Positions 4,011 through 58,526 are shown, counted from the stretch's first letter. The stretch: DNA of 64,000 nt from an uncultured Anaerolineales bacterium (GCA_964461715.1 CAYWVR010000011.1:11289-75288); one strand, 5' to 3'. A program made the numbers and translations. The notes: a model not told the origin generated them from the letters alone.

Positions 4011-4620
4011 GGCGTCTCCTTTCCGGGGTTCGGTTCTCCTTACTATTACCGTGGGAGGAGGTCCGGATTCACGAGAAAAGATCGCCAAGACCGGCCGGAC
4101 GCGAAAAAAGAGGCGTCCCGGCGGCTGGGGACGCCGGGACGCGGGTAGGACTCACCGGCCGCCCGGGCGGAGGGGAGAGGGGGGAAACTCCAGCCGGAGG
4201 CGACCGGCGCTGCATCCGTGTTCACTTGTCGGCCCCGCGGGGGGGCGGGCGCGTCGGCCGCCGAGGGGGGGCGACGACCGACGCGCCAAAGGGGGCGAAG
4301 CATGCACGTGAGCCACAGGAGACTATAGAGACGAACGGCCCGGCGCCAAATCGGGGCCCGGGGAAGGATTTCGCGAAGACCCGCGGGTCTCAGGTAAGTG
4401 CTTTTTCTGGAAGGACTTATGACAAGGCCGCTGGCTCTCGGGAGGGTCGCAGGGGAGGCGGCCTCCGGTGCGCGCAGCTCGGCAAACCGCGAGAAAAAGC
4501 TCGCGAGGGTTCCCGGCAGGGCCTGTCAGAACTTTGGAACCGCCTCCCGGCGGGCGGCGTCCAAGACCGAAGAACGCGGACCTGCATCCGCATGGCAGCC
4601 CAGCGCAAAGGAGGCTTCGG

Positions 4621-25127: not shown

Positions 25128-25341
25128 GGTCTGACCTTTCCACGCTCGGATTCGTTTCCAGTTGCGGCCCCCATTCTACGGGCTCCGAGGCGGCGGCGAA
25201 TGAGGGCCGATGCCCGAATCGGCCCCCGACGCTTGCCGGAATTATAATGGGGGCAGGCCCGAGGTCGGGCAGGGGAATGGCCATAAATGCGGGACCGCGG
25301 TGGCGCCACCGCGGCTCATCACCACCGCTCACGGCGCCGGC

Positions 25342-34467: not shown

Positions 34468-35789
34468 CGGTCCGTCTCGAGCCGCTTGCGGACGCTCTCG
34501 GCGTGGGCCGTGAGGCCCTCGACCTCCGCGAGGCGCAGGATGTCCGGGGCGTCGGCCTCCAGGGCCTCGGCGTCGTACTCGATGACGCTCATCGTGCGGA
34601 CGAAGTCGTTCGCCGTCAGCCCGCTCGCCCAGCGTGCCGTGCCGCCCGTCGGAAGGGTGTGGCTGGGCCCGGCGACATAATCGCCGACGGCAACGGGCGT
34701 CCAGGTTCCCAGGAAGACGGCCCCCGCGCATCGGATCTCGCGCAGAAGGCCCTCCGGGTCGGCCGTCACGATCTGGAGGTGCTCCGGGGCGAAGGCGTTC
34801 GTCAGGCGGGCCGCCTCGTCCATGTTCCCCGCCACGACCAGGGCACTGTACTTCTCGAGGGCCTCCCGGGTGGCCTCGGCCCGGTCGAGCCGGTCGACCT
34901 GGGCCTTGATCTCCTCGGCGACCGCGTCGGCGAGGGCGGCGTCGGGGGTGATGAGGACCGCGGAACCGGGGTCGTGCTCGGCCTGGGAGAGCATGTCCGC
35001 CGCCACCAGAAGCGGATCGGCCGTCCCGTCCGCCAAAACCACCACCTCGCTGGGCCCGGCGAGGCTGTCGATGTCGCAGATGCCGTAGACGAGCTTCTTG
35101 GCCAAGGTGACGTAGAGGTTCCCGGGTCCCGCCACCTTGTCGACGGGCCGGACCGTCTCCGTGCCGTAGGCGAACGCCGCGATGCTGGGCGTCCCTCCCA
35201 TGCGATAGACCTCCTCGACGCCGCACACGCGGCAGACGGCGAGGATGCCGGGGTGGATGTCACCGTCGGCCGAGGGGAGCGAGGCCACGGCCACCTCCGG
35301 CACGCCCGCCGCCAGGGCGGGCACAACCGTCATGAGCATTGAGGAGGGGTAGAAGGCCTTCCATCCGGGCGCCCGGCAGCCCACGCGGGCCAGCGGCCGG
35401 ACCACCTGCCGGAGCCGGCGCCCGTCGCACAGGAGCGGCTCGGTGTCGCGGACCAGAATCCGCCGCTGGAACTCCCGGATACGGTCGCGGACCCGCGTGA
35501 CGGTCTCGATGAACTCGGGCGGCTGGTCGCGGTAGGCGGCCTCGATGGTCTCCGGCGGCACCCGGAGGCCCTCGGGCGTCAGATCGGACCCGTCGAAGCG
35601 GTTGGTCCACTCGCAGACCGCGGCGTCGCCTCGCTCGCGGACGTCGTCGAGGACGCGGCGGACGTCGTCCTCGGCGTCGGCGACGCGGCCACCGCCCGAG
35701 ACCATGCCCTGCTCGGCCCCCAAGGCCGCACGCAGAGCCTCCCAGGCCCGGCGGCCGGCGTCGGTGCGAGTGTCGATGCGGCGGATCAT
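34464..35789 (-). CDS. hisD: histidinol dehydrogenase
   Basis: SQAEHD, the GPSHTLPTGGTARW region and other HisD hallmarks. Start MIRRIDTR at CAT 35787-35789. Overlaps hisC by 4 nt. Confidence 0.9.
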   Translation of the reverse strand: MIRRIDTRTDAGRRAWEALRAALGAEQGMVSGGGRVADAEDDVRRVLDDVRERGDAAVCEWTNRFDGSDLTPEGLRVPPETIEAAYRDQPPEFIETVTRVRDRIREFQRRILVRDTEPLLCDGRRLRQVVRPLARVGCRAPGWKAFYPSSMLMTVVPALAAGVPEVAVASLPSADGDIHPGILAVCRVCGVEEVYRMGGTPSIAAFAYGTETVRPVDKVAGPGNLYVTLAKKLVYGICDIDSLAGPSEVVVLADGTADPLLVAADMLSQAEHDPGSAVLITPDAALADAVAEEIKAQVDRLDRAEATREALEKYSALVVAGNMDEAARLTNAFAPEHLQIVTADPEGLLREIRCAGAVFLGTWTPVAVGDYVAGPSHTLPTGGTARWASGLTANDFVRTMSVIEYDAEALEADAPDILRLAEVEGLTAHAESVRKRLETDR

Positions 35790-35869
35790 GGGCCTGTCCC
35801 CGTGCGGCGCATTCCAAGGGGGGATTATAGGCGGGCCGGGGGGCGATGCAACCGGATTCGAGCGGTCGT

Positions 35870-41123: not shown

Positions 41124-41172
41124 AGGCCCCAGGAAGGCCGATTTCAACCGTTCCCCGAAAGGAGTCCATCGC

Positions 41173-41679
41173 ATGAGCAAGAAGTTCTTCAACGAGGTCG
41201 AAGCCCTCAAGATCGCTCAGAACATGGAGCGCCATGGCATCGCCTTCTACGAAAAAGCCGCCGCCGCCTCCCCCGATGAAAGCACCCGGAAGGTCCTTCT
41301 GGAGCTCGCCGAGGACGAAAAGAAGCACCTCGCGCGTTTCGAGGAGATCGAGGAGAAGTTCCAGGCCCATCGCCGAGACGGAGGCGGATATGCCGACGAT
41401 GAGGACCTCCGGGCCTACATCGACCGCCTCATCGGGACCCAGGTCTTCGCCGACGAGGGCGATGTGGCACGGCTTGCGGAACAAACCGATTCCGACTACG
41501 AGGCCTTGGGGGTGGGCATGCGGGCCGAACGCGATTCGATCGTCTTCTATCAGGAGATGATCGATTTCGTCGATTCGCCCGAGGCCAAGGAGGCGTTCGG
41601 CCAGATCCTCAACGAGGAACGCCGCCACCTCCAAATCCTCGGCGAACGCTCCGAGCACTGCGAAAACTACGAGGCCTAG
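41173..41679 (+). CDS. ferritin-like diiron protein (rubrerythrin family, no rubredoxin domain)
   Basis: Two ExxH motifs in helical context (LAEDEKKHLARF, LNEERRHLQIL) plus E..Y pairs. ATG 41173 follows AAAGGAG. Confidence 0.65.
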   Translation: MSKKFFNEVEALKIAQNMERHGIAFYEKAAAASPDESTRKVLLELAEDEKKHLARFEEIEEKFQAHRRDGGGYADDEDLRAYIDRLIGTQVFADEGDVARLAEQTDSDYEALGVGMRAERDSIVFYQEMIDFVDSPEAKEAFGQILNEERRHLQILGERSEHCENYEA

Positions 41680-47805: not shown

Positions 47806-49305
47806 TCACCATCTCCGATCCTCCGTCTTCCCATGCCCGAGCAGCAGCCCCGTCACGAGGTACCGGAGCGCATCGATCGGGTGGTCCGAACCGTCCTTGG
47901 CGGGCTTCTCGGACACCTCGCCGCCCCTCCGCCGCCGCCACCGGTACGCCTGCATGGCCCGCACCAGGTGGCGGCACGATGGGTCGATCACGAGGCCCGG
48001 GCCGCCCGGCCGGTCCTTCAGCAGCCTCCGCACGAGCTCGATGCCCTCGTGCACCCCGGACCGCGGCGAGCGGACCCGCATGCCCATCCGCGCGAGCTCC
48101 TGGCACGGGCCGGTGCCCGTCACGTCCGACCGTTGCCACCCCGCCGGGTCGCCGAAGGTGGCGGTCACGGGTCCCGGGTCGAGGGCCTGCATGGCCCGGG
48201 CGTGCTCGGCGATGCGGCGCTCGCGGGCGACGTACTCGGCCAGGACCCGCACCTGGACGTTCGAGAGGTCGGCGTCGACGCCCGTCCCGCCGGGCCGGCC
48301 CTGGACCTGGACCCAGAGGCAGACGAACGGATTGGCATATCCGAAATCGAGGGCCCGGTAGAGCGGCCACTCCGCCTCCCACGCCGCCGGCCCCACGTGC
48401 CGCGCGGGGTCGAACTCCGAGAACACCGCCGCTTCGGTCCGCGGCCGCAGGCACAGCATCTCCGTCTCCCATGCCGCGCGGCTGGCGCGGGCCTGCTGGG
48501 CAAGGGCGTCGTCGATGGGGAGGTACCCGGCGGCCTCGCGGGCCCGCCCGCCGCAGTCCGTCCAGAGCGGACACCGGCTGCACGCCCGGTCCGGCCCGCA
48601 CCGCTCGATGACCTCCCAGAGGCACCACGTGAGCAGCCGCGGCCCGTTTGCCTCGGGCGGCCCGCCGCGGCCGATCCGATCGACGAGCGCGGCCATGGGG
48701 CCGAAGGGGCGGTGCATCGTCGAGAAGGCCTCGATATGGGCCGGGAGCCATTCGCCCTCCGACCCCGGCCCGGACTGCGTCACGAACTGGGCCGCCTGCC
48801 ATACCTCGGGCGTGAACTCGTCCACCTCGTCGCACCGCAGCCGATGGACCCGCACGCCGCGCACCGAGCGCGGCGACTGCGTGAGGACCTCGATTTCCGA
48901 CCCGTTCGCCAGCACCGTCCGCCGGGCCGTGGGCGGTCGTGCCAGGTGCGCCCCCAAGCGCCCCTGCCACTTCCGCCCGAGGGACGCGTACATCTTCCGC
49001 GACTGCTCCAGGCTCCCGCCGAGAATCCGGGTGCGACAGCCCGGGCGGAACATCGAATCGAGATGCGTCGCCACGGAGCCGAGCTCCGTCTTCGCGCCGC
49101 CGCGACACGCCCAGACCACCACGTCGCGCCCCGGAAAAAAGAACGAACGGGCCAGGTACTCCAGCGGCGCCGCGTGCCCCTCGCACACCGCCCGGTCCGG
49201 CACATCCAGCCCGTAGACCGCCCGCACGAACGCCCGGAGCGTGTTCCTGGAGCGCGGCGGGGTCCGAAGGATCGCGTCGACGAGCGGGGTCCAATCGCGG
49301 GTCAT
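47806..49305 (-). CDS. phage terminase large subunit-like protein
   Basis: Walker A-like VWACRGGAKTE; Walker B RLRCDEVDEF; C-terminal RNase-H-like nuclease motifs (ALDFGY..., DHPIDALRY). Start MTRDWTPL at CAT 49303-49305, preceded on the minus strand by AAGGAG. Confidence 0.7.
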   Translation of the reverse strand: MTRDWTPLVDAILRTPPRSRNTLRAFVRAVYGLDVPDRAVCEGHAAPLEYLARSFFFPGRDVVVWACRGGAKTELGSVATHLDSMFRPGCRTRILGGSLEQSRKMYASLGRKWQGRLGAHLARPPTARRTVLANGSEIEVLTQSPRSVRGVRVHRLRCDEVDEFTPEVWQAAQFVTQSGPGSEGEWLPAHIEAFSTMHRPFGPMAALVDRIGRGGPPEANGPRLLTWCLWEVIERCGPDRACSRCPLWTDCGGRAREAAGYLPIDDALAQQARASRAAWETEMLCLRPRTEAAVFSEFDPARHVGPAAWEAEWPLYRALDFGYANPFVCLWVQVQGRPGGTGVDADLSNVQVRVLAEYVARERRIAEHARAMQALDPGPVTATFGDPAGWQRSDVTGTGPCQELARMGMRVRSPRSGVHEGIELVRRLLKDRPGGPGLVIDPSCRHLVRAMQAYRWRRRRGGEVSEKPAKDGSDHPIDALRYLVTGLLLGHGKTEDRRW

Positions 49306-49395
49306 GGCAGGGCTCCTTACCCCGGGGGCTTCTCCTCGGGCATGGAAGGCAACCAGGGGACCGAACAAGCCGGTTGCCGGGTCCCCCTTTTGTCC

Positions 49396-50010
49396 TCACT
49401 CTCTCCCACACGCCTCCAGATACCAGCACGCCAACCGCTCCAGCCGTTCGGCCCGGTCGGGCCGGGTACTCATGGCGGCGCGGGCGATGGCGGCCAGGGC
49501 CTCGGTGACGGCGGCATGCTGCTCGGGCCGCAGGAAGAACGTCATCGGCCGAAACGGCGGCGCGGCATCGGCAGGCGGGCGCAGGTCGGGGGGCGGTTGG
49601 GCGAGGGCCAGCAGACGCTCGATTCCGTCCGGCGGCTCGGGAAGGAACCGGGCCAGGTCCCGCGGGCTTCGCCCTTCCGCCAGCCGGGCCACCAGGGCCG
49701 CGCGCCGAGTCGGGTCGTCGCGTCCCTCCAGCCGGTTCAGCGTCGCGAGCAGGAGCCGGGCTTCCTCGTCCTCGACCTCCCACACGTCGCACCGGGCCTG
49801 CGTGTGGCCGAGGTCCCTGAGGACCCGCGCCCGGTGGTGCCCGTTCAGAATCTGGTACCGCCCGCCGCACGCTGGTCGCACGGTCAGCGGCTCGTATCGC
49901 CCGGTCCGCGCGACGTGCCGTCGAAGCACCTCGAGCGCCCGCGGCGCCATGCGGTTGGCGTTCTCCGGATGGGCGTCGAGCGCGGCGAGGGGGAGGGTTC
50001 GGAGGGTCAT
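49396..50010 (-). CDS. ParB-like nuclease domain protein
   Basis: LDAHPENANRM...YQILNGHHRARVLRDLG is ParB N-terminal (ParB/Srx) domain motif. CAT 50008-50010 is preceded on the minus strand by AAGGAGAAG. Confidence 0.65.
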   Translation of the reverse strand: MTLRTLPLAALDAHPENANRMAPRALEVLRRHVARTGRYEPLTVRPACGGRYQILNGHHRARVLRDLGHTQARCDVWEVEDEEARLLLATLNRLEGRDDPTRRAALVARLAEGRSPRDLARFLPEPPDGIERLLALAQPPPDLRPPADAAPPFRPMTFFLRPEQHAAVTEALAAIARAAMSTRPDRAERLERLACWYLEACGRE

Positions 50011-50127
50011 GGCGTCTTCTCCTTCTGGGCAGAGGAACGGGCCAACAAGGTGACGCGGGGACCAAGCGACCGGGGACGGCAACGACCGCACCGTCGTTTT
50101 CGTCGGTCCCCCGGTCTGCCCGGTCGG

Positions 50128-50559
50128 TTAGTCACCCGCCTTCCCGATGATCTCCAGCATCCGCCCCACGGCCTCGTCGGGGAGCGCGGCCAGGCGTTTC
50201 GCGAGGGGGTCGTCCTCGGGCGTCGTCTTCGGTTCGGGCGGCGGGGCGGGGACGAGCGGCTCGACGCCCAGGCGCAGGACCTCCCGGGCCGCCTGACGCG
50301 CCTCCGACGCCGACTCCGACTCCAGCTCCGCAATGAGCCGCGCCGCGGCCGCCGGCGCCCAGAGCCGAAGCGCCGCCCGGGCCTGGGCCAGCGGCTCCCG
50401 CAGCTTCTCCTCCACCAGGGCCCGGAAGGCGGGGGCCTCCAGCCACCGGCGGAGCGTCTCCGGGCGGACCCCCACCGCCCGGGCCGCCTCGTCCACGCGA
50501 AACGTGTGCCTCATGAGCGACTCGGCGGCCTTGTGATGGCGACAGGTGATCTTCTTCAT
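50128..50559 (-). CDS. HTH DNA-binding protein (possible terminase small subunit)
   Basis: 143 aa with a MerR/excisionase-like HTH (FRVDEAARAVGVRPETLRRWL). CAT 50557-50559 is preceded on the minus strand by GGGAGAC. Position is upstream of the ParB-like and terminase genes. Confidence 0.45.
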   Translation of the reverse strand: MKKITCRHHKAAESLMRHTFRVDEAARAVGVRPETLRRWLEAPAFRALVEEKLREPLAQARAALRLWAPAAAARLIAELESESASEARQAAREVLRLGVEPLVPAPPPEPKTTPEDDPLAKRLAALPDEAVGRMLEIIGKAGD

Positions 50560-51320
50560 GGCGAGGTCTCCCATTCGGGGGGCGTCTCGGGCCGCCGCCA
50601 CAGGTAGTAGACCGGGGCGGCCCCGAGGTGGCGGGCCACGAGGTCCAGCAGCCGGGCGTGCGGCGGGCGCTGGGTCTGATGGTTCTTCGCGCCGAGATAC
50701 GAGCGGGCCCACCGTGCCAGCTCCCGATCGACAAATCGCCGCATCGCGGGCGAAAGGGTCTCGAGCGCCTCGGCCATTGCCGCGGGGCGATGCGCGACGG
50801 AAAGGTCGAGACCGGCGGCGTCCAGGGCGCTTCGCAATCGTTCGGCCTGCGGCGGCGCCGACGGCGGATAGGCCGTCATCCCCGCCCGCTCGAAGAAGGG
50901 ATGGACGCGGCCCATGGCGGCGAGGGCCTCGACGTACGGCGTCCCGACCGCCGGCAGCGTCTCGCGCACCAGCCGCGCCGCCAGGCCCAGCCCCCGCCAG
51001 TTCGGCGCGACGACGACGCGGCTGACGATGCGCAGCTCCCGGTTCACGAGGTCCGCCAGGGCCACGCGCCCCAGCCGCCCGAGCCGGTACCGCCCGCCCG
51101 TCGCGCGGTTCCGGGCGGCCAGGCTCAGCGGGCTGCGGCTGTAGACGAGGACGCCCACCCGGGTCGGCCGGCCGCCGGCCCCGTGGCGCATCGCGAAGAC
51201 GTCCGTGATCGCCCCGGCCCCGTGGCCGCGGTAATGAAGCGGCGCGAGCGCCCGCCAGGCGGCGCGCGTCCCGCGCTCGATCCGGACCTCTTCGGTCAGC
51301 GTGCATGGGCGGCGGGTCAT
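50556..51320 (-). CDS. hypothetical protein, weak GNAT-acetyltransferase-like motif
   Basis: 254 aa; VVVAPNWRGLGLAARLVRE resembles GNAT motif A (R/Q-x-x-G-x-G/A). 4-nt overlap with both neighbours on the minus strand. Confidence 0.4.
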   Translation of the reverse strand: MTRRPCTLTEEVRIERGTRAAWRALAPLHYRGHGAGAITDVFAMRHGAGGRPTRVGVLVYSRSPLSLAARNRATGGRYRLGRLGRVALADLVNRELRIVSRVVVAPNWRGLGLAARLVRETLPAVGTPYVEALAAMGRVHPFFERAGMTAYPPSAPPQAERLRSALDAAGLDLSVAHRPAAMAEALETLSPAMRRFVDRELARWARSYLGAKNHQTQRPPHARLLDLVARHLGAAPVYYLWRRPETPPEWETSP

Positions 51321-52054
51321 CGGGCGCGCTCCCGGCCCGTCTCTCGGTCCGGGTCGGCGTAGTAGACGTCGGCGGCAGTTCCGGCGGCCTTGACGACGAG
51401 GACGTCCGGGGCGAGGTCGTCGAGGATGTCGTCGTGGGCGCAGGCGGCCAGGATCGTCAGGTTCCGCCGGTCCGCCAGCCGCCGCAGCCGATACGCCACC
51501 GCCCGGGCGCAGAGCCGGTCGAGCGTCGAGGCCAGCTCGTCCGCCACCAGAACCCGCCACGCCTCGGGCGGGGCCGCGTCGGCCTCCACGTCCGCCAGGC
51601 CCAGGGCCGCCAGCGCGTGCGCCAGCCGCAGCCGCCACCGCTGCCCCTCGCTCAGCTCCCCCGGCCGCCTCAGCAACACGAACGCGTCCGCCAGCCCGGC
51701 CGTGCTCGCCAGGTACAGCGTCTCGTCGAGCGGCAGGCCGAACCCGTCGACGACGCGCTTGCGCGGCGGGGGCTCGATGTCCGCCAGATTCACGATCCGG
51801 GCCCGCGCCTCCGCCGCCCGCAGGCTCGCGACGAGCCGCCGCAGGCCCGCGCTCTTGCCGCACCCGGACGGGCCCGTCAGGAAGACGACGTCGCCCGGCC
51901 GCACGTCCACCGCGAGCCCGTCGTAGAGGCGGACCTCGTCGCGCTCGTCCAGGCCGAGGCCGAACATCTCGGCCACCGCCTCGACCCGCCGGCTCGGGCG
52001 CCCCCGCGCCCGGCCGCGGGCGGAGAACTTTTCGTTGATCGTATGCAGCGCCAT
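51317..52054 (-). CDS. standalone ABC-type ATPase (nucleotide-binding domain only)
   Basis: GPSGCGKS is Walker A; LSEGQRWRL is the signature; LVADE is Walker B; LAS is the D-loop; AAHD is the H-loop. No adjacent permease. CAT 52052-52054 is preceded on the minus strand by AAGGAG. Confidence 0.65.
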   Translation of the reverse strand: MALHTINEKFSARGRARGRPSRRVEAVAEMFGLGLDERDEVRLYDGLAVDVRPGDVVFLTGPSGCGKSAGLRRLVASLRAAEARARIVNLADIEPPPRKRVVDGFGLPLDETLYLASTAGLADAFVLLRRPGELSEGQRWRLRLAHALAALGLADVEADAAPPEAWRVLVADELASTLDRLCARAVAYRLRRLADRRNLTILAACAHDDILDDLAPDVLVVKAAGTAADVYYADPDRETGRERAR

Positions 52055-52069
52055 CGTTAGTCTCCTTGC

Positions 52070-52372
52070 ATGATCCTGTTGAAGAAGAAGTTCCTGGAGG
52101 CGGTCCGCTCGGGGGCCAAGCGGCAGACGATCCGCGTGTGGCCGAAGCGGCGTCTGAAGGCGGGGCAGGGGGAGTTCATCCCCGGCCTCGGACGCATCCG
52201 CATCACCGCCTTCGAGCCCGTGCGACCGGAGGACCTGACTGAGCAGGACGCGCGCCTGGACGGGTTCGCGTCCCGCGAGGCGCTGCTCGCCGAGCTTCGT
52301 GCCCTGTACGGCGCCGACCTCGCCACCGTCCCGTGCTTCCGCATCCGCTTCGTATGGCCGGCCGAGCCGTAG
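52070..52372 (+). CDS. ASCH-domain protein
   Basis: KKKFLEAVRSGAKRQTIRVW is the ASCH N-terminal motif. Its start is only 15 bp from the divergent ATPase start and has no SD, so the start is uncertain. Confidence 0.55.
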   Translation: MILLKKKFLEAVRSGAKRQTIRVWPKRRLKAGQGEFIPGLGRIRITAFEPVRPEDLTEQDARLDGFASREALLAELRALYGADLATVPCFRIRFVWPAEP

Positions 52373-52384
52373 CGGCGTCCGATC

Positions 52385-52789
52385 TTACTCGTCCCCATCG
52401 CCGCCCCCCTTCCGTCGTTTCCGCCTCGCCTCGGCCCGGGCGACCTTGCGTTCGATGCGATGGATGCGGCGGCGGAGGGCCGTGGCGGAGAGGGCCCGGC
52501 CGTCCTCGGCATAGAGCTCTCGCCGGGCGATCTCCCGTAGCGACACCCGCCCGAGGATGTGGAGCCGCGCGAGCCGCCGCTCCTCGCCCGAGAGGGCCGT
52601 CCAGTTCCGGACCGTCGCGACGAGCCGCGGATCGGTGGCCCGGCGTCGGGCCCGGCGGACGATCTGTCGCACGGCGTCCCGCGTCACCCCGCACGCCGCC
52701 GCCAACTGCCGGTACGACGCCCCGCGAACGTGATAGAGCTCCAGCAGGGCCCGTTCGCGGGGCGTCAGGGTCCGCAAGGCGGCCTTCAT
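52385..52789 (-). CDS. small protein with two tandem sigma-70 region-4-like HTH motifs
   Basis: LTPRERALLELYHVRGASYRQLAAACGVTRDAVRQIVRRARRR and LSGEERRLARLHILGRVSLREIARRE both fit the region-4 pattern (ER.vl.L....G.s..EIA). Start MKAALRTL at CAT 52787-52789. Confidence 0.5.
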   Translation of the reverse strand: MKAALRTLTPRERALLELYHVRGASYRQLAAACGVTRDAVRQIVRRARRRATDPRLVATVRNWTALSGEERRLARLHILGRVSLREIARRELYAEDGRALSATALRRRIHRIERKVARAEARRKRRKGGGDGDE

Positions 52790-52891
52790 GGTGGCGTGAG
52801 GGGCGATCTGACGGGCGTTTTGGTCGGGGCCGGGGCTTGCGTCCTCCGGAGACACGGCGACTCCCTTCCGGGCTCGGGTGTTCGCTAGCAA

Positions 52892-53036
52892 TCGTACTCA
52901 CAGTATAGCTTGTGTTTGCTGGAAGTCAACCCGCAGTTTGAAAAAGCCCCTATTTTTTGTTGACGCGGATTCGCACACGAGTAAACTTCAGGCGACAACG
53001 AGGGGTAAGCGGCCCCATCAAGCCGGGGAGGCAACG
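52892..53036. promoter_or_regulatory. AT-rich divergent promoter/operator region between the region-4 HTH gene and the CI/LexA-like repressor
   Basis: Lowest-GC stretch in the window. TTGACG...TAAACT is a -35/-10 candidate for the repressor. Imperfect palindrome CACAGTATAGCTTGTG. Confidence 0.4.
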
Positions 53037-53936
53037 ATGGGTCTCAAGGACAACCTGAAGGAGTTGGCCCGTCTCCGTCGTGAGCTCGGCATGCTCCGCG
53101 ACACGGACGCCTTCCGCCAGCGCGTGCGCCGGGCCCGCAAGGGGCGCGGCATGACGCTCGAGGAGTTGGCCTCCGCCACGGGTATGGCCAAGAGCTACCT
53201 GTCGCAGATCGAGACCGGCGCCGCCAGCCCGCCCCGCGACGACAAGGTCCGCCGCATCGCCGCCGCCCTCGGCCTCGACGAGGTCGAGCTCGTGAGCCTG
53301 GCCCGCCACGCCCAGTTGCCCGACGAGATGCGCGAGCGGATGGCCCGCCTCGCGACGATCTTCGACATGACCGAGGAGCGGATTCAGAACCTCCTCGAGG
53401 TCCAGGCCCTGCGCGAATCCGCCGACGCCGCCCCCGTCGACCTCGACGCCCTCCACCGAAGCGGCCTCCTGGAGAAGCTCGCCGCCTGGGGCGAACCCGC
53501 CCCGCCCGCCCGCCTCCGGCGCGTCCCCATCATCAACAAGGTCTCCGCCGGGTACTCCGTCGAGTTCACGGACCTCGACTACCCCGTGGGCGTGGCCGAC
53601 GAGTACATCGCCGTGCCCGTCGACCTCGGCGACCCGCATGCCTTTGCCGTCCGCGTCGTCGGCGACTCCATGGAGCCGCGGTACCACGAGGGCGACGTCG
53701 TGATCCTCAGCCCCGCCGAGACCATTCAGAGCGGCGACGACTGCTTCGTCCGCTTCGCCCCGGAGGTGCGCCGGAAGGGCAACGAGGCCACGTTCAAGCG
53801 CGTCTTCTTCGACGCCGAAGACGCTGTGCGGCTCCAGCCGTTGAACGAGAGCTACCCGCCCGACGTCGTGGGGCCCGCGGAGATCGCCGGCATCTACCGG
53901 GCCGTCGCCCGCTACGAGAAGCTCGAGCGCAAGTGA
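53037..53936 (+). CDS. CI/LexA-like repressor (XRE-family HTH + S24 peptidase domain)
   Basis: ATG 53037 follows GGGAGG. HTH LEELASATGMAKSYLSQIETG. C-terminal S24 domain with GDSMEP (Ser nucleophile) and a downstream basic residue region (FKRV). Confidence 0.8.
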   Translation: MGLKDNLKELARLRRELGMLRDTDAFRQRVRRARKGRGMTLEELASATGMAKSYLSQIETGAASPPRDDKVRRIAAALGLDEVELVSLARHAQLPDEMRERMARLATIFDMTEERIQNLLEVQALRESADAAPVDLDALHRSGLLEKLAAWGEPAPPARLRRVPIINKVSAGYSVEFTDLDYPVGVADEYIAVPVDLGDPHAFAVRVVGDSMEPRYHEGDVVILSPAETIQSGDDCFVRFAPEVRRKGNEATFKRVFFDAEDAVRLQPLNESYPPDVVGPAEIAGIYRAVARYEKLERK

Positions 53937-53944
53937 GGCTCGCC

Positions 53945-54970
53945 ATGGACGACGACGTCATCCTGATGGCCGACGGCGGGGGCGGCGAGCGGATGCTGGA
54001 GCTCATCCGGCGCGAGATTCTCGCCCGCTTCGCACCGGGCGGCCGGGGGCAACTCGCGCGCCTCTTTGACGCGGCCGTCCTCGATCCCGGCCCCGGCCCG
54101 ATCGCCTTTACGACCGACAGCTACGTCGTGCGGCCGCTCGAGTTTCCGGGCGGCAACATCGGCCGCCTTGCCGTCGCGGGCACCGTCAACGACCTGGCGT
54201 GCGCCGGGGCGCGGCCGGTGGCCCTGTCGCTGGCGCTGATTCTGGAGGAGGGCCTGCCGCTCGCCACCCTTCGGCGGGTGCTCGACGCCGCGGCCAAGGC
54301 GGCCCGCGAGACGGGGGCGGCGGTGGTGTGCGGCGACACGAAGGTCGTCGAGCATGGAAGCGCCGACGGGATGTACATCAATACCGCCGGCATCGGACGC
54401 ATCGAGACCGCCCGGGCCCTGGGACCCGAGACGATCCGCCCCGGCGACCGCGTCCTCGTCTCCGGCACCCTCGGCGACCACGGCGTGGCCGTGATGAGCC
54501 GCCGCGAGGGCCTCGAATTCGAGGCGGCGGTCGCAAGCGACGCCGCCCCCCTCTGGCCCCTCGCCGAGGCGCTCATGAACGCATGTCCGAACCTTCGGGC
54601 CCTCAAGGACCCGACGCGCGGCGGGCTGGCGGCGGCGGTGAACGAGATGGCCGAGGCGGCCGGCGTCGGCATCGAGATCGAGGAAGCCGCCGTCCCCGTG
54701 CGCCCGGCGGTGGCCGGGGCCTGTGAGGCCCTGGGGCTCGACGTCCTCACGGTCGCGAACGAGGGAAAGTTCGTCGTCGTCGCCCCGCCCGACGAAGCCG
54801 AGGCCGCCCTGGCCGCCATGCACGCCCACCCCCTCGGCCGCGCCGCCCGCTCCATCGGCGCCGTCCACGACGCAGGCCCCCCCGGCCCCCGCGTCACGTT
54901 GATCACCTCGATCGGCGGTCGCCGCGTCCTCGAAATGCCCTACGGCGAAGATCTGCCGCGCATCTGCTGA
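53945..54970 (+). CDS. hypE: [NiFe] hydrogenase maturation protein HypE (carbamoyl dehydratase)
   Basis: Near-complete collinear similarity to E. coli HypE, including FTTDSYVV.PLFFPGGNIG.LA..GT.ND.A..GA.P, VSGTLGDHG and the C-terminal PRIC. Begins 9 nt after the repressor stop. Confidence 0.9.
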   Translation: MDDDVILMADGGGGERMLELIRREILARFAPGGRGQLARLFDAAVLDPGPGPIAFTTDSYVVRPLEFPGGNIGRLAVAGTVNDLACAGARPVALSLALILEEGLPLATLRRVLDAAAKAARETGAAVVCGDTKVVEHGSADGMYINTAGIGRIETARALGPETIRPGDRVLVSGTLGDHGVAVMSRREGLEFEAAVASDAAPLWPLAEALMNACPNLRALKDPTRGGLAAAVNEMAEAAGVGIEIEEAAVPVRPAVAGACEALGLDVLTVANEGKFVVVAPPDEAEAALAAMHAHPLGRAARSIGAVHDAGPPGPRVTLITSIGGRRVLEMPYGEDLPRIC

Positions 54971-55861
54971 ACGGCAAGGCGCCGGGCATCGGGCGACGGC
55001 AAACGGCGAACGTGACCTCCGGACGGGTGGGGATGCCGGCATAGGTAAGGCTTCGAGATTGCCAAGAGCGTCAACGTTCAGTCCGTTCGCGACGAAGTTC
55101 AGGGCGGCGCTTCCCTTGGGGCGGCCGTGGACGGGCCCGGGTCCTGTCTGACGAATCGGATCGGGCTTCGAGCGGCCGCATTCGCCCCTGGCGGCGTCTG
55201 CCTGGAAACTCATGCACACGTCTGAGGCGCGCGGGTTTCGCTCCGCGCCGCGCGCTCGATGCCTTGGCCCCGGGGCCGGCATACGACGCATGGCCACGTG
55301 TGGCCGTGTATTCCGCGGTCCGCGTTCCGAGCTCCGCGTTCAGTCCCCGCCCCTGCCGCAAAAACGCAAATGCCCACATTTTTGCGTCAGGTTCTCCGGG
55401 GCAATGGCCAAGGCCGGCGGGGGGGCGGCAAGAAGGGGTCAACTTCGTGCAAAAAGGGGGGCAAAAGGGGCGAGTTCCCCCCGGGTACCCCCCGAAAAGG
55501 TGCGAAAAGTGTGTCGCGGAGGGATAAATCGTTTCACGAATCCCGCCAAACGGGGGTTGGGGGCTGCGCGGCTTGCCCAGCTTGCGCAGGTTGCCATCGG
55601 GGCAAATGATTAGGGCCGGATTGGGGGTCGGGGCGGTCGCCTGGCGGAGGACGGGAGGGCCGGAGTGTTGCGGCGAATCAGCGATGGGCGGACGGATGAC
55701 GATGGACGCGGAGGCAGGGAGTCGGGGGGAGAAAGAGCGTGGGGTGGATCGGGCGGGGAAGGGGGTTGCATCGGGATGGGGGAGGGGTATAATACGACTC
55801 TTTGACGCCCGGTCCAAACGGGCCGGGAAGGCCGAATTCGCAAGAATACGGGGCAAGGGCC
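54971..55861. other. ~890-bp non-coding region with a purine/G-run-rich tract and the rpmE promoter
   Basis: No ORF with a credible translation. Strong G>>C skew on the plus strand from ~55400 to 55790, with many GGGG runs. Inverted repeat ACGCAAATG..CATTTTTGCGT near 55365-55395. Confidence 0.5.
55764..55793 (+). promoter_or_regulatory. putative sigma70 promoter of rpmE
   Basis: TTGCAT, 16-nt spacer, TATAAT, ~70 nt upstream of ATG 55862. Confidence 0.45.
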
Positions 55862-56452
55862 ATGAAAAGCGACATCCATCCCGAGTACGTCGAGTGCAAG
55901 GTGACCTGCGGGTGCGGCAACAGCTTCACGACGCGGGCCACGGTGGGGGAGCTGGCGGTCGAGGTCTGTTCGGCCTGCCACCCCTTCTACACGGGCCAGC
56001 AGCGGTTTGTGGACACGGCGGGACGGGTCGAGAAGTTCCAGAAGAAGTTCAAATGGAACGCCGCCCAGGCGGTCCAGGAGGCCGATGAGGCGGCCAAGAA
56101 GGCCCGCGAAAAGGCCGCGAAGAAGAAGGCGGCCGAGGCCCCGAAGAAGGCCCCCGCGAAGGCGAAATCCGCGGAGGGCAAGAAGCCCGAAAAGGCCGCC
56201 GGCGAGGCCAAGAAGGCCGATGAGGCGAAGGCCGAGTCGAAAAAGCCGGACGAGGCGAAGGCGGGCGCGGGGGGCAAGTCGACGGCGCCCGGGGTGGGGG
56301 AGGAATCGAAGCGGAAGCGTAACCCCCCGTCGAAGGCCAAGAAGGAGTCTCTGACGCCCAAAACGGGCAGCGCGCCCGCCCCGGAGGCCCCCGGCCAGCC
56401 GGCGGCGGCCGCGGACGAGGAGAAGGGGTCGCAGGGGGCGTCAGAGGGCTGA
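55862..56452 (+). CDS. rpmE: ribosomal protein L31 (zinc-ribbon type) fused to a ~125-aa Lys/Ala-rich histone-H1-like C-terminal tail
   Basis: [63 protein letters not shown] is full-length L31 with a CxC...CxxC motif. It continues in frame as [26 protein letters not shown]... to the stop at 56452. Confidence 0.8.
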
Positions 56453-57193: not shown

Positions 57194-57356
57194 GGTTTGT
57201 CTCCTCTCCTAGACTATTGTACGGGCGCGGGGGCCGCGGTCCAAGCATCTCGGAAGTCAAGAATTCGCGGGGGTTGGTCGGCGGGTCGGCTGGGGCATTG
57301 AATTGGGGCGGCGGGGGGCGTACACTCGGCACTCTAACTCCAGGCGGAGCGGGGCT

Positions 57357-58526
57357 TTGGCGAACGTTGCCATCCTGGGATCGACCGGATCCATCGGCCG
57401 CATGACCCTCGAGGTGCTCGCCTCGCTCGGTGAGCCGTATCGGGCGGTGTCGCTGGCGGCCGAGACGCAGACGGACCGGCTGGCTGCGCAGGTCGCCGCG
57501 ACGGGCGTCAGCCGGGTGTCGGTGGGGAGTGAAAAGGCCGCTCGGAGCCTCCGGGAGGCGCTTCCGAGGGCGAGTGAGGTCGAGATTCTCGTGGGTCCGG
57601 CGGGCCTCGAGGCGCTGGCCTCGGACCCGGAAGCGGACATCGTCCTCTCGGCGGTGGTGGGCGGAGCGGGCCTGCCGGCGGCCCTGGCGGCGGTCCGGGC
57701 CGGGAAGCGGCTGGCCCTGGCGAACAAGGAAAGCCTGGTCATGGCCGGGGCCCTGGTGATGGGCGCCGCGGCCGAGTCGGGGGCCGAGGTCGTGCCGGTC
57801 GACAGCGAGCACTCGGCCATCTTCCAGGCGATGGCGTGCGGGCGGCGCCAGGAGGTCCGAACGGTCGTTCTGACGGCCTCCGGGGGGCCGTTTTACCGGA
57901 AGACGCCGGACGCGCTGGAGAGCGTGACTGCCGCCGATGCGCTTAACCATCCGACGTGGTCGATGGGCCCGAAGATCACGATCGACTCGGCTACGCTCAT
58001 GAACAAGGCCCTGGAGGTGATCGAGGCCCATCACCTGTTCGGTGTGGCGGCGGGCGAGATTCGGGTGCTGGTGCATCCACAATCGACGGTCCATTCGCTG
58101 GTGGAGTTCGTGGACGGGTCGGTGATGGCCCAGCTCGGGCCGCCCGACATGCGGATGCCCATTCAGTACGCCCTGACGTACCCCCGGCGCCGCGGGGCCC
58201 CGTGGCCGCGCCTGGACCTGGCGTCGCTGGGGACGCTGGAGTTCGAGACACCGGATACGGCCCGTTTCCCGGCCCTGGATCTCGGATTCGAGGTCGTGAG
58301 GCGGGGCGGGACGATGGGGGCCGCCCTGGTGGGGGCCGACGAGACGGTCGTCGAGGCGTTTCTCGAGGGCCGCATCCGGTTTACGGACATGGTGCCGCTG
58401 GTGCGACAGGTGGTCGAGGCCCACGCGTTCCGGGCCGACCCGTCGCCGGACGAGATTCGGGACGTGGATCGCTGGGCCAGGAAGGAAGCCGCGCGTTGCC
58501 TAACCTCCTCTACATCTTCGAGATAG
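57357..58526 (+). CDS. dxr: 1-deoxy-D-xylulose 5-phosphate reductoisomerase
   Basis: VAILGSTGSIGR (NADPH motif), LANKESLV, DSEHSAIFQ and NHPTWSMG are Dxr signatures. Start inferred as TTG 57357 (L-A-N-V-A-I-L-G) after GGAG. The ATG/TTG at 57303 is a less likely alternative. Confidence 0.8.
   Translation: MANVAILGSTGSIGRMTLEVLASLGEPYRAVSLAAETQTDRLAAQVAATGVSRVSVGSEKAARSLREALPRASEVEILVGPAGLEALASDPEADIVLSAVVGGAGLPAALAAVRAGKRLALANKESLVMAGALVMGAAAESGAEVVPVDSEHSAIFQAMACGRRQEVRTVVLTASGGPFYRKTPDALESVTAADALNHPTWSMGPKITIDSATLMNKALEVIEAHHLFGVAAGEIRVLVHPQSTVHSLVEFVDGSVMAQLGPPDMRMPIQYALTYPRRRGAPWPRLDLASLGTLEFETPDTARFPALDLGFEVVRRGGTMGAALVGADETVVEAFLEGRIRFTDMVPLVRQVVEAHAFRADPSPDEIRDVDRWARKEAARCLTSSTSSR

Follow-up and report, generated by a model that had tools for sequence, protein, structure and literature searches.

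The window analysed here is a stretch of 64,000 nucleotides with a GC content of 70%. It contains an 891-bp spacer (54971-55861) between two plus-strand genes, hypE and rpmE. The upstream neighbour, hypE (53945-54970), is matched by the NCBIfam model TIGR02124 with 395 bits (cut-off 251.6), and an identical HypE protein with the same start at 53945 is present in the records. The rpmE gene (55862-56452, ATG at 55862) encodes ribosomal protein L31 (196 residues; Pfam PF01197, E = 5e-32) and is followed by a minus-strand lipoprotein-like gene and then by dxr. The L31 protein consists of a 65-residue Zn-ribbon-type domain (CxC...CxxC) and a tail of about 130 residues rich in Lys, Ala, and Glu. The L31 proteins of related Phycisphaerae are likewise long (108–257 residues). 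The nearest L31 proteins are 83–85% identical in the conserved domain and come from metagenome bins of Phycisphaerae and other Planctomycetota. The records contain an identical L31 protein only in four short-read assemblies and in an NCBI contig of 95.6 kb, and no close relative of the source genome was found by the L31 protein search.

The hypE gene is isolated, with no other hyp genes nearby (47806-54970). It is preceded by an XRE-HTH/peptidase-S24 (LexA-like) regulator, and farther upstream are an ECF sigma factor, ASCH-domain, ABC-ATPase-like, and ParB_N-domain proteins, and several proteins of unknown function. This block (47806-54970) is not syntenic with the closest relative (L001). Its GC content is 0.73–0.755, compared with 0.65–0.71 to the right of the spacer.

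A reading made previously from the sequence alone (hereafter the sequence-only reading) had found no credible ORF in these roughly 890 bp, and our analysis agrees. The codon-position GC spread in the spacer does not exceed 0.20, compared with 0.30–0.48 in the flanking genes. Two long ORFs cross the spacer (261 residues on the minus strand and 133 on the plus strand). Neither has a Pfam match, and no genes with these products were found in the records. A decayed gene was rejected because the spacer has neither codon periodicity nor a Pfam match, and tblastx and tblastn searches against the upstream genes of relatives gave noise or out-of-frame matches. The left part of the spacer (54971-55355), downstream of hypE, is unskewed non-coding DNA with a GC content of 0.67–0.72 and no recognisable feature. 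These 385 bp have no periodicity, repeats, or Rfam match, and they resemble no sequence of the relatives or of plasmids or phages. According to a gene map based on periodicity, the hypE–rpmE spacer is the longest in the 64-kb window. The other spacers had been said to be shorter than 350 bp; however, the same map includes spacers of 610 (4011-4620), 552 (41124-41675), and 413 bp.

The right end of the spacer carries a sigma70-type promoter on the plus strand (55766-55793), composed of a −35 element TTGCAT (55766-55771), a 16-nt spacer, and a −10 element TATAAT (55788-55793). This promoter had already been assigned to rpmE, and the assignment is strengthened by related loci from three other Phycisphaerae lineages. 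The motif (G/C)TTGCAT-N16-TATAAT is kept before rpmE in L001 and in L002/L089/L090, and it appears in L091 with TTGCGT as the −35 element; in all of these loci it lies at an equal distance from rpmE, between diverged flanks. The site combines a hexamer separation within the 16–18 bp of sigma70 promoters and a near-consensus −10 element with conservation at the orthologous position. A generic promoter scan made no call here because the −35 element fits the E. coli consensus TTGACA at only three of six positions. We consider the prediction that this end of the spacer is a conserved housekeeping promoter of rpmE, TTGCAT-N16-TATAAT, with a short leader to be well supported.

The window contains TATAAT seven times, 13-fold more often than expected (0.53). 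Sites elsewhere are located at 35824-35829 (minus strand), 25241-25248, 26203, 27718, and 44589. The site at 25241-25248 is a textbook bidirectional promoter, in which a perfect TATAAT on one strand overlaps one on the other. The minus-strand site at 35824 belongs to a second GTTGCAT-N16-TATAAT, upstream of a gene ending at 35789. This recurrence suggests that the motif is a strong-promoter consensus of the lineage.

Transcription of rpmE would start near 55800, and the predicted 5′ leader is about 61 nt long (55800-55861). It contains a hairpin (CCCGGUCC-AAAC-GGGCCGGG) at 55808-55827, whose fold has a z of −1.3; the window 55740-55839 has a z of −3.3. No covariation or conserved structure was found for this hairpin among the relatives. 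In E. coli, two promoter regions serve rpmE, and a hairpin in the rpmE leader is an autogenous operator (PMC7297116). The present locus is similar in that a stable hairpin is placed in a short leader before the start codon. However, the lack of covariation, the lack of a matching Rfam family, and the lack of an AU-rich enhancer or a clear Shine-Dalgarno element distinguish it from the E. coli leader.

The only promoter-like match returned by the consensus promoter scan lies on the minus strand (55789-55816) and consists of TGGACC (55816->55811), a 16-nt spacer, and TATTAT (55794->55789). Its −10 element is shared with the rpmE promoter. The heptamer TATAATA (55788-55794) is nearly symmetric, so that RNA polymerase may also start leftward, near 55782. 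In the passage of PMC10268837 that cites Warman et al. 2021, bidirectional promoters are described as having starts 18 bp apart and reciprocal −7T and −11A. Both features are found in the geometry of TATAATA, which presents −11A and −7T reciprocally on the two strands and places the two predicted starts 18 bp apart. As in those promoters, transcription in the divergent direction would yield a non-coding RNA. In contrast to them, the predicted divergent transcript would meet dedicated-looking terminators 290–420 nt on. The weak points of the leftward promoter are its −35 element, which matches at four of six positions, and its predicted start base, which is a pyrimidine.

An intrinsic-terminator-like hairpin is located on the minus strand at 55451-55493. 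Its stem, which is followed by TTTTTGCACG, is built of a helix in which G6 (the complement of 55488-55493) is paired to C6 and of an inner G4:C4 helix. This GC-rich stem-loop has a ΔG of −25.6 kcal/mol directly before T5 and belongs to the top four or five sites of this type in the window. In a scan for hairpins followed by T-runs, it equaled the intrinsic terminators 1262->1216 and 60536->60497, which lie behind real genes. T4+ runs number only 32 in the 64 kb, and on the plus strand no T-run lies behind the 55451-55493 stem. A generic terminator scan, with 0.9 calls expected per 1.2 kb, called none here; it missed the site because the stem has an internal loop.

Farther to the left, the sequence-only reading had pointed to an inverted repeat, and ACGCAAATG/CCCA/CATTTTTGCGT at 55364-55387 can indeed pair, with a 2-nt bulge. 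The resulting AT-rich hairpin (arms 55364-55372 and 55377-55387, loop CCCA) is a weak terminator-like feature of the minus strand (55360-55387), where it is followed by TTTT(T)GC; the T4-5 run follows on this strand only. The minus-strand folding window 55300-55399 has a z of −2.9, and the hairpin failed a filter of ΔG ≤ −12. It may act as a back-up terminator. Both hairpins are flanked by A4+/T4+ tracts that form the densest such cluster of the window (55323-55522; six in 200 bp, compared with a mean of 0.27).

The plus strand at 55400-55790 is a G- and purine-rich tract that stands out in G runs, GC skew, and G4Hunter score. The G-richness noticed previously is evident from the base composition (G 46.5%, C 20%, and A 20%, with only two C-runs). 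GGGG runs are abundant, as described, but their number in this range is exactly 15 and not more than 15. The G-run density of the 64 kb peaks here, at 16 per 391 bp compared with a mean of 2.66 (sd 2.1). GC skew (0.559) and purine content (0.72) both reach their maximum over 200-bp windows at 55598-55797, each about 5 sd out. Dinucleotide-preserving shuffles of the tract gave 12.9 ± 1.9 runs, compared with the 15 seen. The run count thus matches the local dinucleotide composition; therefore, the anomaly lies in the composition of the strand and not in its arrangement into runs. This is a caution for GC-rich genomes, in which G-run counts track composition. In a minus-strand transcript of the tract, the ratio of C to G would be about 2.3 over the whole length and 3.5 within 55598-55797. 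The cumulative GC skew of the window has its minimum at about 55000, to the right of which the plus-strand skew is +0.1 to +0.18 for about 4 kb and then falls to about 0 within 9 kb. This minimum reflects only the local sequence and is no sign of an origin.

Two other spacers are also rich in G-runs. The 610-bp spacer 4011-4620, between divergent genes, has ten plus-strand G-runs and one C-run, together with a minus-strand terminator-like site of a hairpin and T6 (4139->4104), and it has no sequence in common with the rpmE spacer. The third is short and lies upstream of dxr (57194-57356). A genome-wide habit of placing G-rich DNA before genes was not found, as the other spacers of the window have no consistent direction of skew.

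The plus-strand G-quadruplex potential proposed by the sequence-only reading was upheld and is highest at the rpmE −35 element. The G4Hunter maxima of the window for 25-, 100-, and 200-nt windows all fall in the tract, and the best 25-nt segment, with a score of 2.52, is 55741-55765, adjoining the rpmE −35 element. This segment is the canonical plus-strand motif GGGGTGGATCGGGCGGGGAAGGGGG. However, it is the only canonical G3+N1-7 motif in the spacer, and the 64-kb window has 21. The motif has four G3+ runs with loops of 1–7 nt and lies no more than 50 bp upstream of an AT-rich element. A 23-nt tandem duplication (55741-55787, plus strand, 2.1 copies, TRF score 57) extends across the −35 region. 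In GC-rich bacteria, a G-quadruplex motif commonly precedes the AT-rich promoter element, the architecture described for G4PromFinder (PMC5801747). The rpmE promoter resembles this architecture, as its perfect TATAAT is preceded within 50 bp, on the same strand, by a motif of four G3+ runs that adjoins the −35 element. It departs from it in that the G-rich DNA reaches about 350 bp farther than required, relatives with the same rpmE promoter have no G-rich tract, and the quadruplex itself is a prediction from sequence. In the Planctomycetota bin L016 (1830-1885), five G4+ runs lie within 60 bp before a −35-like element of rpmE (GGGGGCGGGGGATTCCGGGGGTTCCGGGAATTCCGGGGGGGTTGAGCA). Promoter-proximal G-runs may therefore recur sporadically at rpmE.

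The suggestion that the spacer hosts a small RNA or a structured regulatory leader was not supported: no Rfam family is present, the folding equals that of shuffled sequence, the predicted leader is short, and the related loci have no similar sequence. A structural DNA element, the further option of the sequence-only reading, is conceivable. Rfam includes families of L31 ribosomal-protein leaders. In a search of the whole 64 kb with Rfam 15, nothing reached the gathering level, and at E ≤ 10 the region 54800-56000 gave only chance-level matches (best score 20.9 bits, cut-off 70). No tRNA or tmRNA was found by ARAGORN. A folding scan of 174 windows on both strands had a mean z of −0.01 and a minimum of −3.3, and only local hairpins stand out. 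Long folds of the spacer have z values of −0.45 and −0.35, equal to those of shuffled sequence. A sponge RNA of the CsrB/RsmZ type was rejected on its motif counts (GGA 17, expected 15.3 ± 2.3; ANGGA 4, expected 2.8).

The comparison with relatives that the sequence-only reading had called for was carried out on 142 rpmE loci from genomes and metagenomes, and none of them has nucleotide similarity to the spacer. The rpmE spacers of the relatives are short (about 120–420 bp) and unskewed. In L001, the downstream order of rpmE, the lipoprotein gene, dxr, and the next gene is kept, and nothing is in common upstream. The upstream gene of L001 has its stop codon about 5 nt before the −35 element, so that its whole spacer is only about 120 bp long; those of the other relatives are roughly 180–420 bp. 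At −300 to −60, the mean skew across 124 rpmE loci is 0.08, compared with 0.46 at the window locus. The 44 high-GC rpmE loci average −0.008 ± 0.075 and do not exceed 0.18, which places the window locus about 6 sd out. The relatives have neither the extra DNA nor the skew; therefore, both are lineage-specific, and they are located exactly at the synteny break. A dispersed repeat or mobile element was rejected because self-BLAST and a repeat finder gave no other copy in the window and none exists in the 142 loci. A plasmid or phage origin was rejected because plasmids and phages gave no match. The 23-nt duplication at the promoter was the sole repeat that self-BLAST, the repeat finder, and TRF detected within the spacer.

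Our preferred, though tentative, interpretation is that the spacer is a promoter region and insulator particular to this lineage of Phycisphaerae and holds no RNA gene. RNA polymerase would also start leftward at the nearly symmetric −10 element and produce a transcript of about 330 nt that is unstructured, very C-rich, and poor in G. Rho loads preferentially on C-rich, G-poor, unstructured RNA, and the predicted transcript has such a composition. It would be ended by Rho, by the two hairpins, or by both before it becomes antisense to hypE. The GC stem and T5 of 55493->55451 and the C/G ratio of 2.3–3.5 in the minus-strand RNA resemble known intrinsic terminators and Rho sites. However, no annotated gene ends at this hairpin, its stem has an internal loop, and the role of Rho here is a proposed one. 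The extra DNA probably came with the rearrangement that set the hypE block beside rpmE. The quadruplex motif at the −35 element would fit the pattern of such motifs before AT-rich elements in GC-rich bacteria (PMC5801747). Points against this interpretation, besides the weak −35 element and the pyrimidine start of the leftward promoter, are that chance terminator-like hairpins are no rarity in GC-rich DNA, that an insulator would need far less skewed DNA than these roughly 400 bp, and that no role is assigned to the left 385 bp.

The insulator function is dispensed with if the spacer is a neutral leftover, without function except in its last 100 bp or so, of a rearrangement or insertion by which the hypE block came to lie beside rpmE. 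In that case, the hairpins would be due to chance, and the G skew would have arisen by accident of composition or as a by-product of mutation. The lack of conservation and of similarity to any locus is consistent with this explanation, as are the 120–420 bp that suffice in the relatives, the synteny break exactly at the spacer, the G-run count accounted for by composition, and the absence of a folding signal. However, a skew of 0.56 with 72% purine over 200 bp, about 5 sd out in the window and about 6 sd out against the 44 loci, is hard to reach by drift alone. Moreover, a G6/C6 hairpin with T5 has the quality of a real terminator, in a genome with 70% GC. We therefore regard a neutral leftover as somewhat doubtful. 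A functional tract of another kind is unlikely on the sequence features at hand, whether as a C-rich regulatory RNA of about 330 nt, divergent from the rpmE promoter and ending at 55451, or as a G-quadruplex or R-loop switch coupling rpmE to supercoiling or to hypE transcription. For the RNA, a lineage-specific sRNA running on the minus strand from about 55782 to the 55451 terminator and acting in trans, for example on G-rich leaders or Shine-Dalgarno sequences, a promoter-like site and a good terminator are present in the correct order and orientation. C-rich unstructured RNAs aimed at G-rich sites occur in other bacteria and provide a precedent. However, the predicted RNA belongs to no Rfam family and has no stable structure except the terminator. 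No homologue was found in rpmE loci, plasmids, or phages, nor a second copy in the window, and its C-rich, G-poor composition makes it a prime Rho target that would probably be short-lived. Such an sRNA is quite improbable.

A switch of non-B DNA, in which the plus-strand tract, chiefly 55741-55787, folds upon unwinding and tunes rpmE or blocks read-through from hypE, appears similarly improbable. It draws on the G4Hunter scores, the highest in the window, on the canonical motif adjoining the −35 element, and on the occurrence of such motifs before AT-rich promoter elements in GC-rich bacteria (PMC5801747); the G-runs right before the rpmE −35 element of L016 also agree with it. However, canonical motifs are frequent here (21 in 64 kb), relatives carry the same promoter without the tract, and the other GTTGCAT-N16-TATAAT promoter of the window has no upstream G-runs. 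A plus-strand RNA from a promoter farther upstream, either a long structured rpmE leader or riboswitch or a CsrB-like sponge sRNA, would agree with the richness of the tract in G and A and with the two promoter regions and operator hairpin of E. coli rpmE (PMC7297116). This possibility is very unlikely and largely refuted, as there is no upstream promoter-like site and no terminator on the plus strand, no match to the L31 leaders or other Rfam families, a folding z of about 0, no conserved leader structure, and GGA motifs only at the expected level. The cumulative skew minimum at about 55000 could suggest a replication origin or a site of chromosome structure, but this idea is scarcely tenable. 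DnaA boxes form no cluster (two one-mismatch matches in the spacer; 13 in the window, 8.7 expected), the GC content never falls below 0.62 to give an AT-rich unwinding region, the positive skew drops to about 0 within 9 kb, and neither dnaA nor dnaN is nearby. An oriC was accordingly rejected, as it would lack both DnaA boxes and an unwinding element.

The spacer is real but ordinary, with no evidence that it contains a new RNA or represents an element of a new kind. If the promoter-plus-insulator interpretation is correct, the locus provides an example, in a little-studied phylum, of how the strong promoter of a ribosomal-protein gene, with its symmetric −10 element, is buffered against its own divergent transcription. 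TTGCAT-N16-TATAAT would then be the promoter consensus of the lineage, and a rearrangement could leave a long spacer of extreme composition. The practical value lies in the annotation of the promoter and the terminator, and no new question is raised.

An assembly break lies inside the spacer and is common to all four of the independent short-read assemblies (SRR7048218, SRR7048224, SRR7048225, and SRR7048227). The left contigs end at 55549 and the right contigs start at 55526, leaving a 24-nt overlap (55526-55549) across which the hypE-side and rpmE-side contigs are both exact to the window. Elsewhere, the same contigs differ from the window by 0–10 substitutions over 2.4–7.6 kb. Possible causes of the break are two nearby polymorphic sites (55525 and 55550), the collapse of a variant, and a failure of sequencing or coverage beside the G-runs. 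The rpmE contig of SRR7048227 (L081) diverges within dxr after window position 57833, from its own position 2309, with 1681 ungapped mismatches; this is probably due to an indel or a strain variant.
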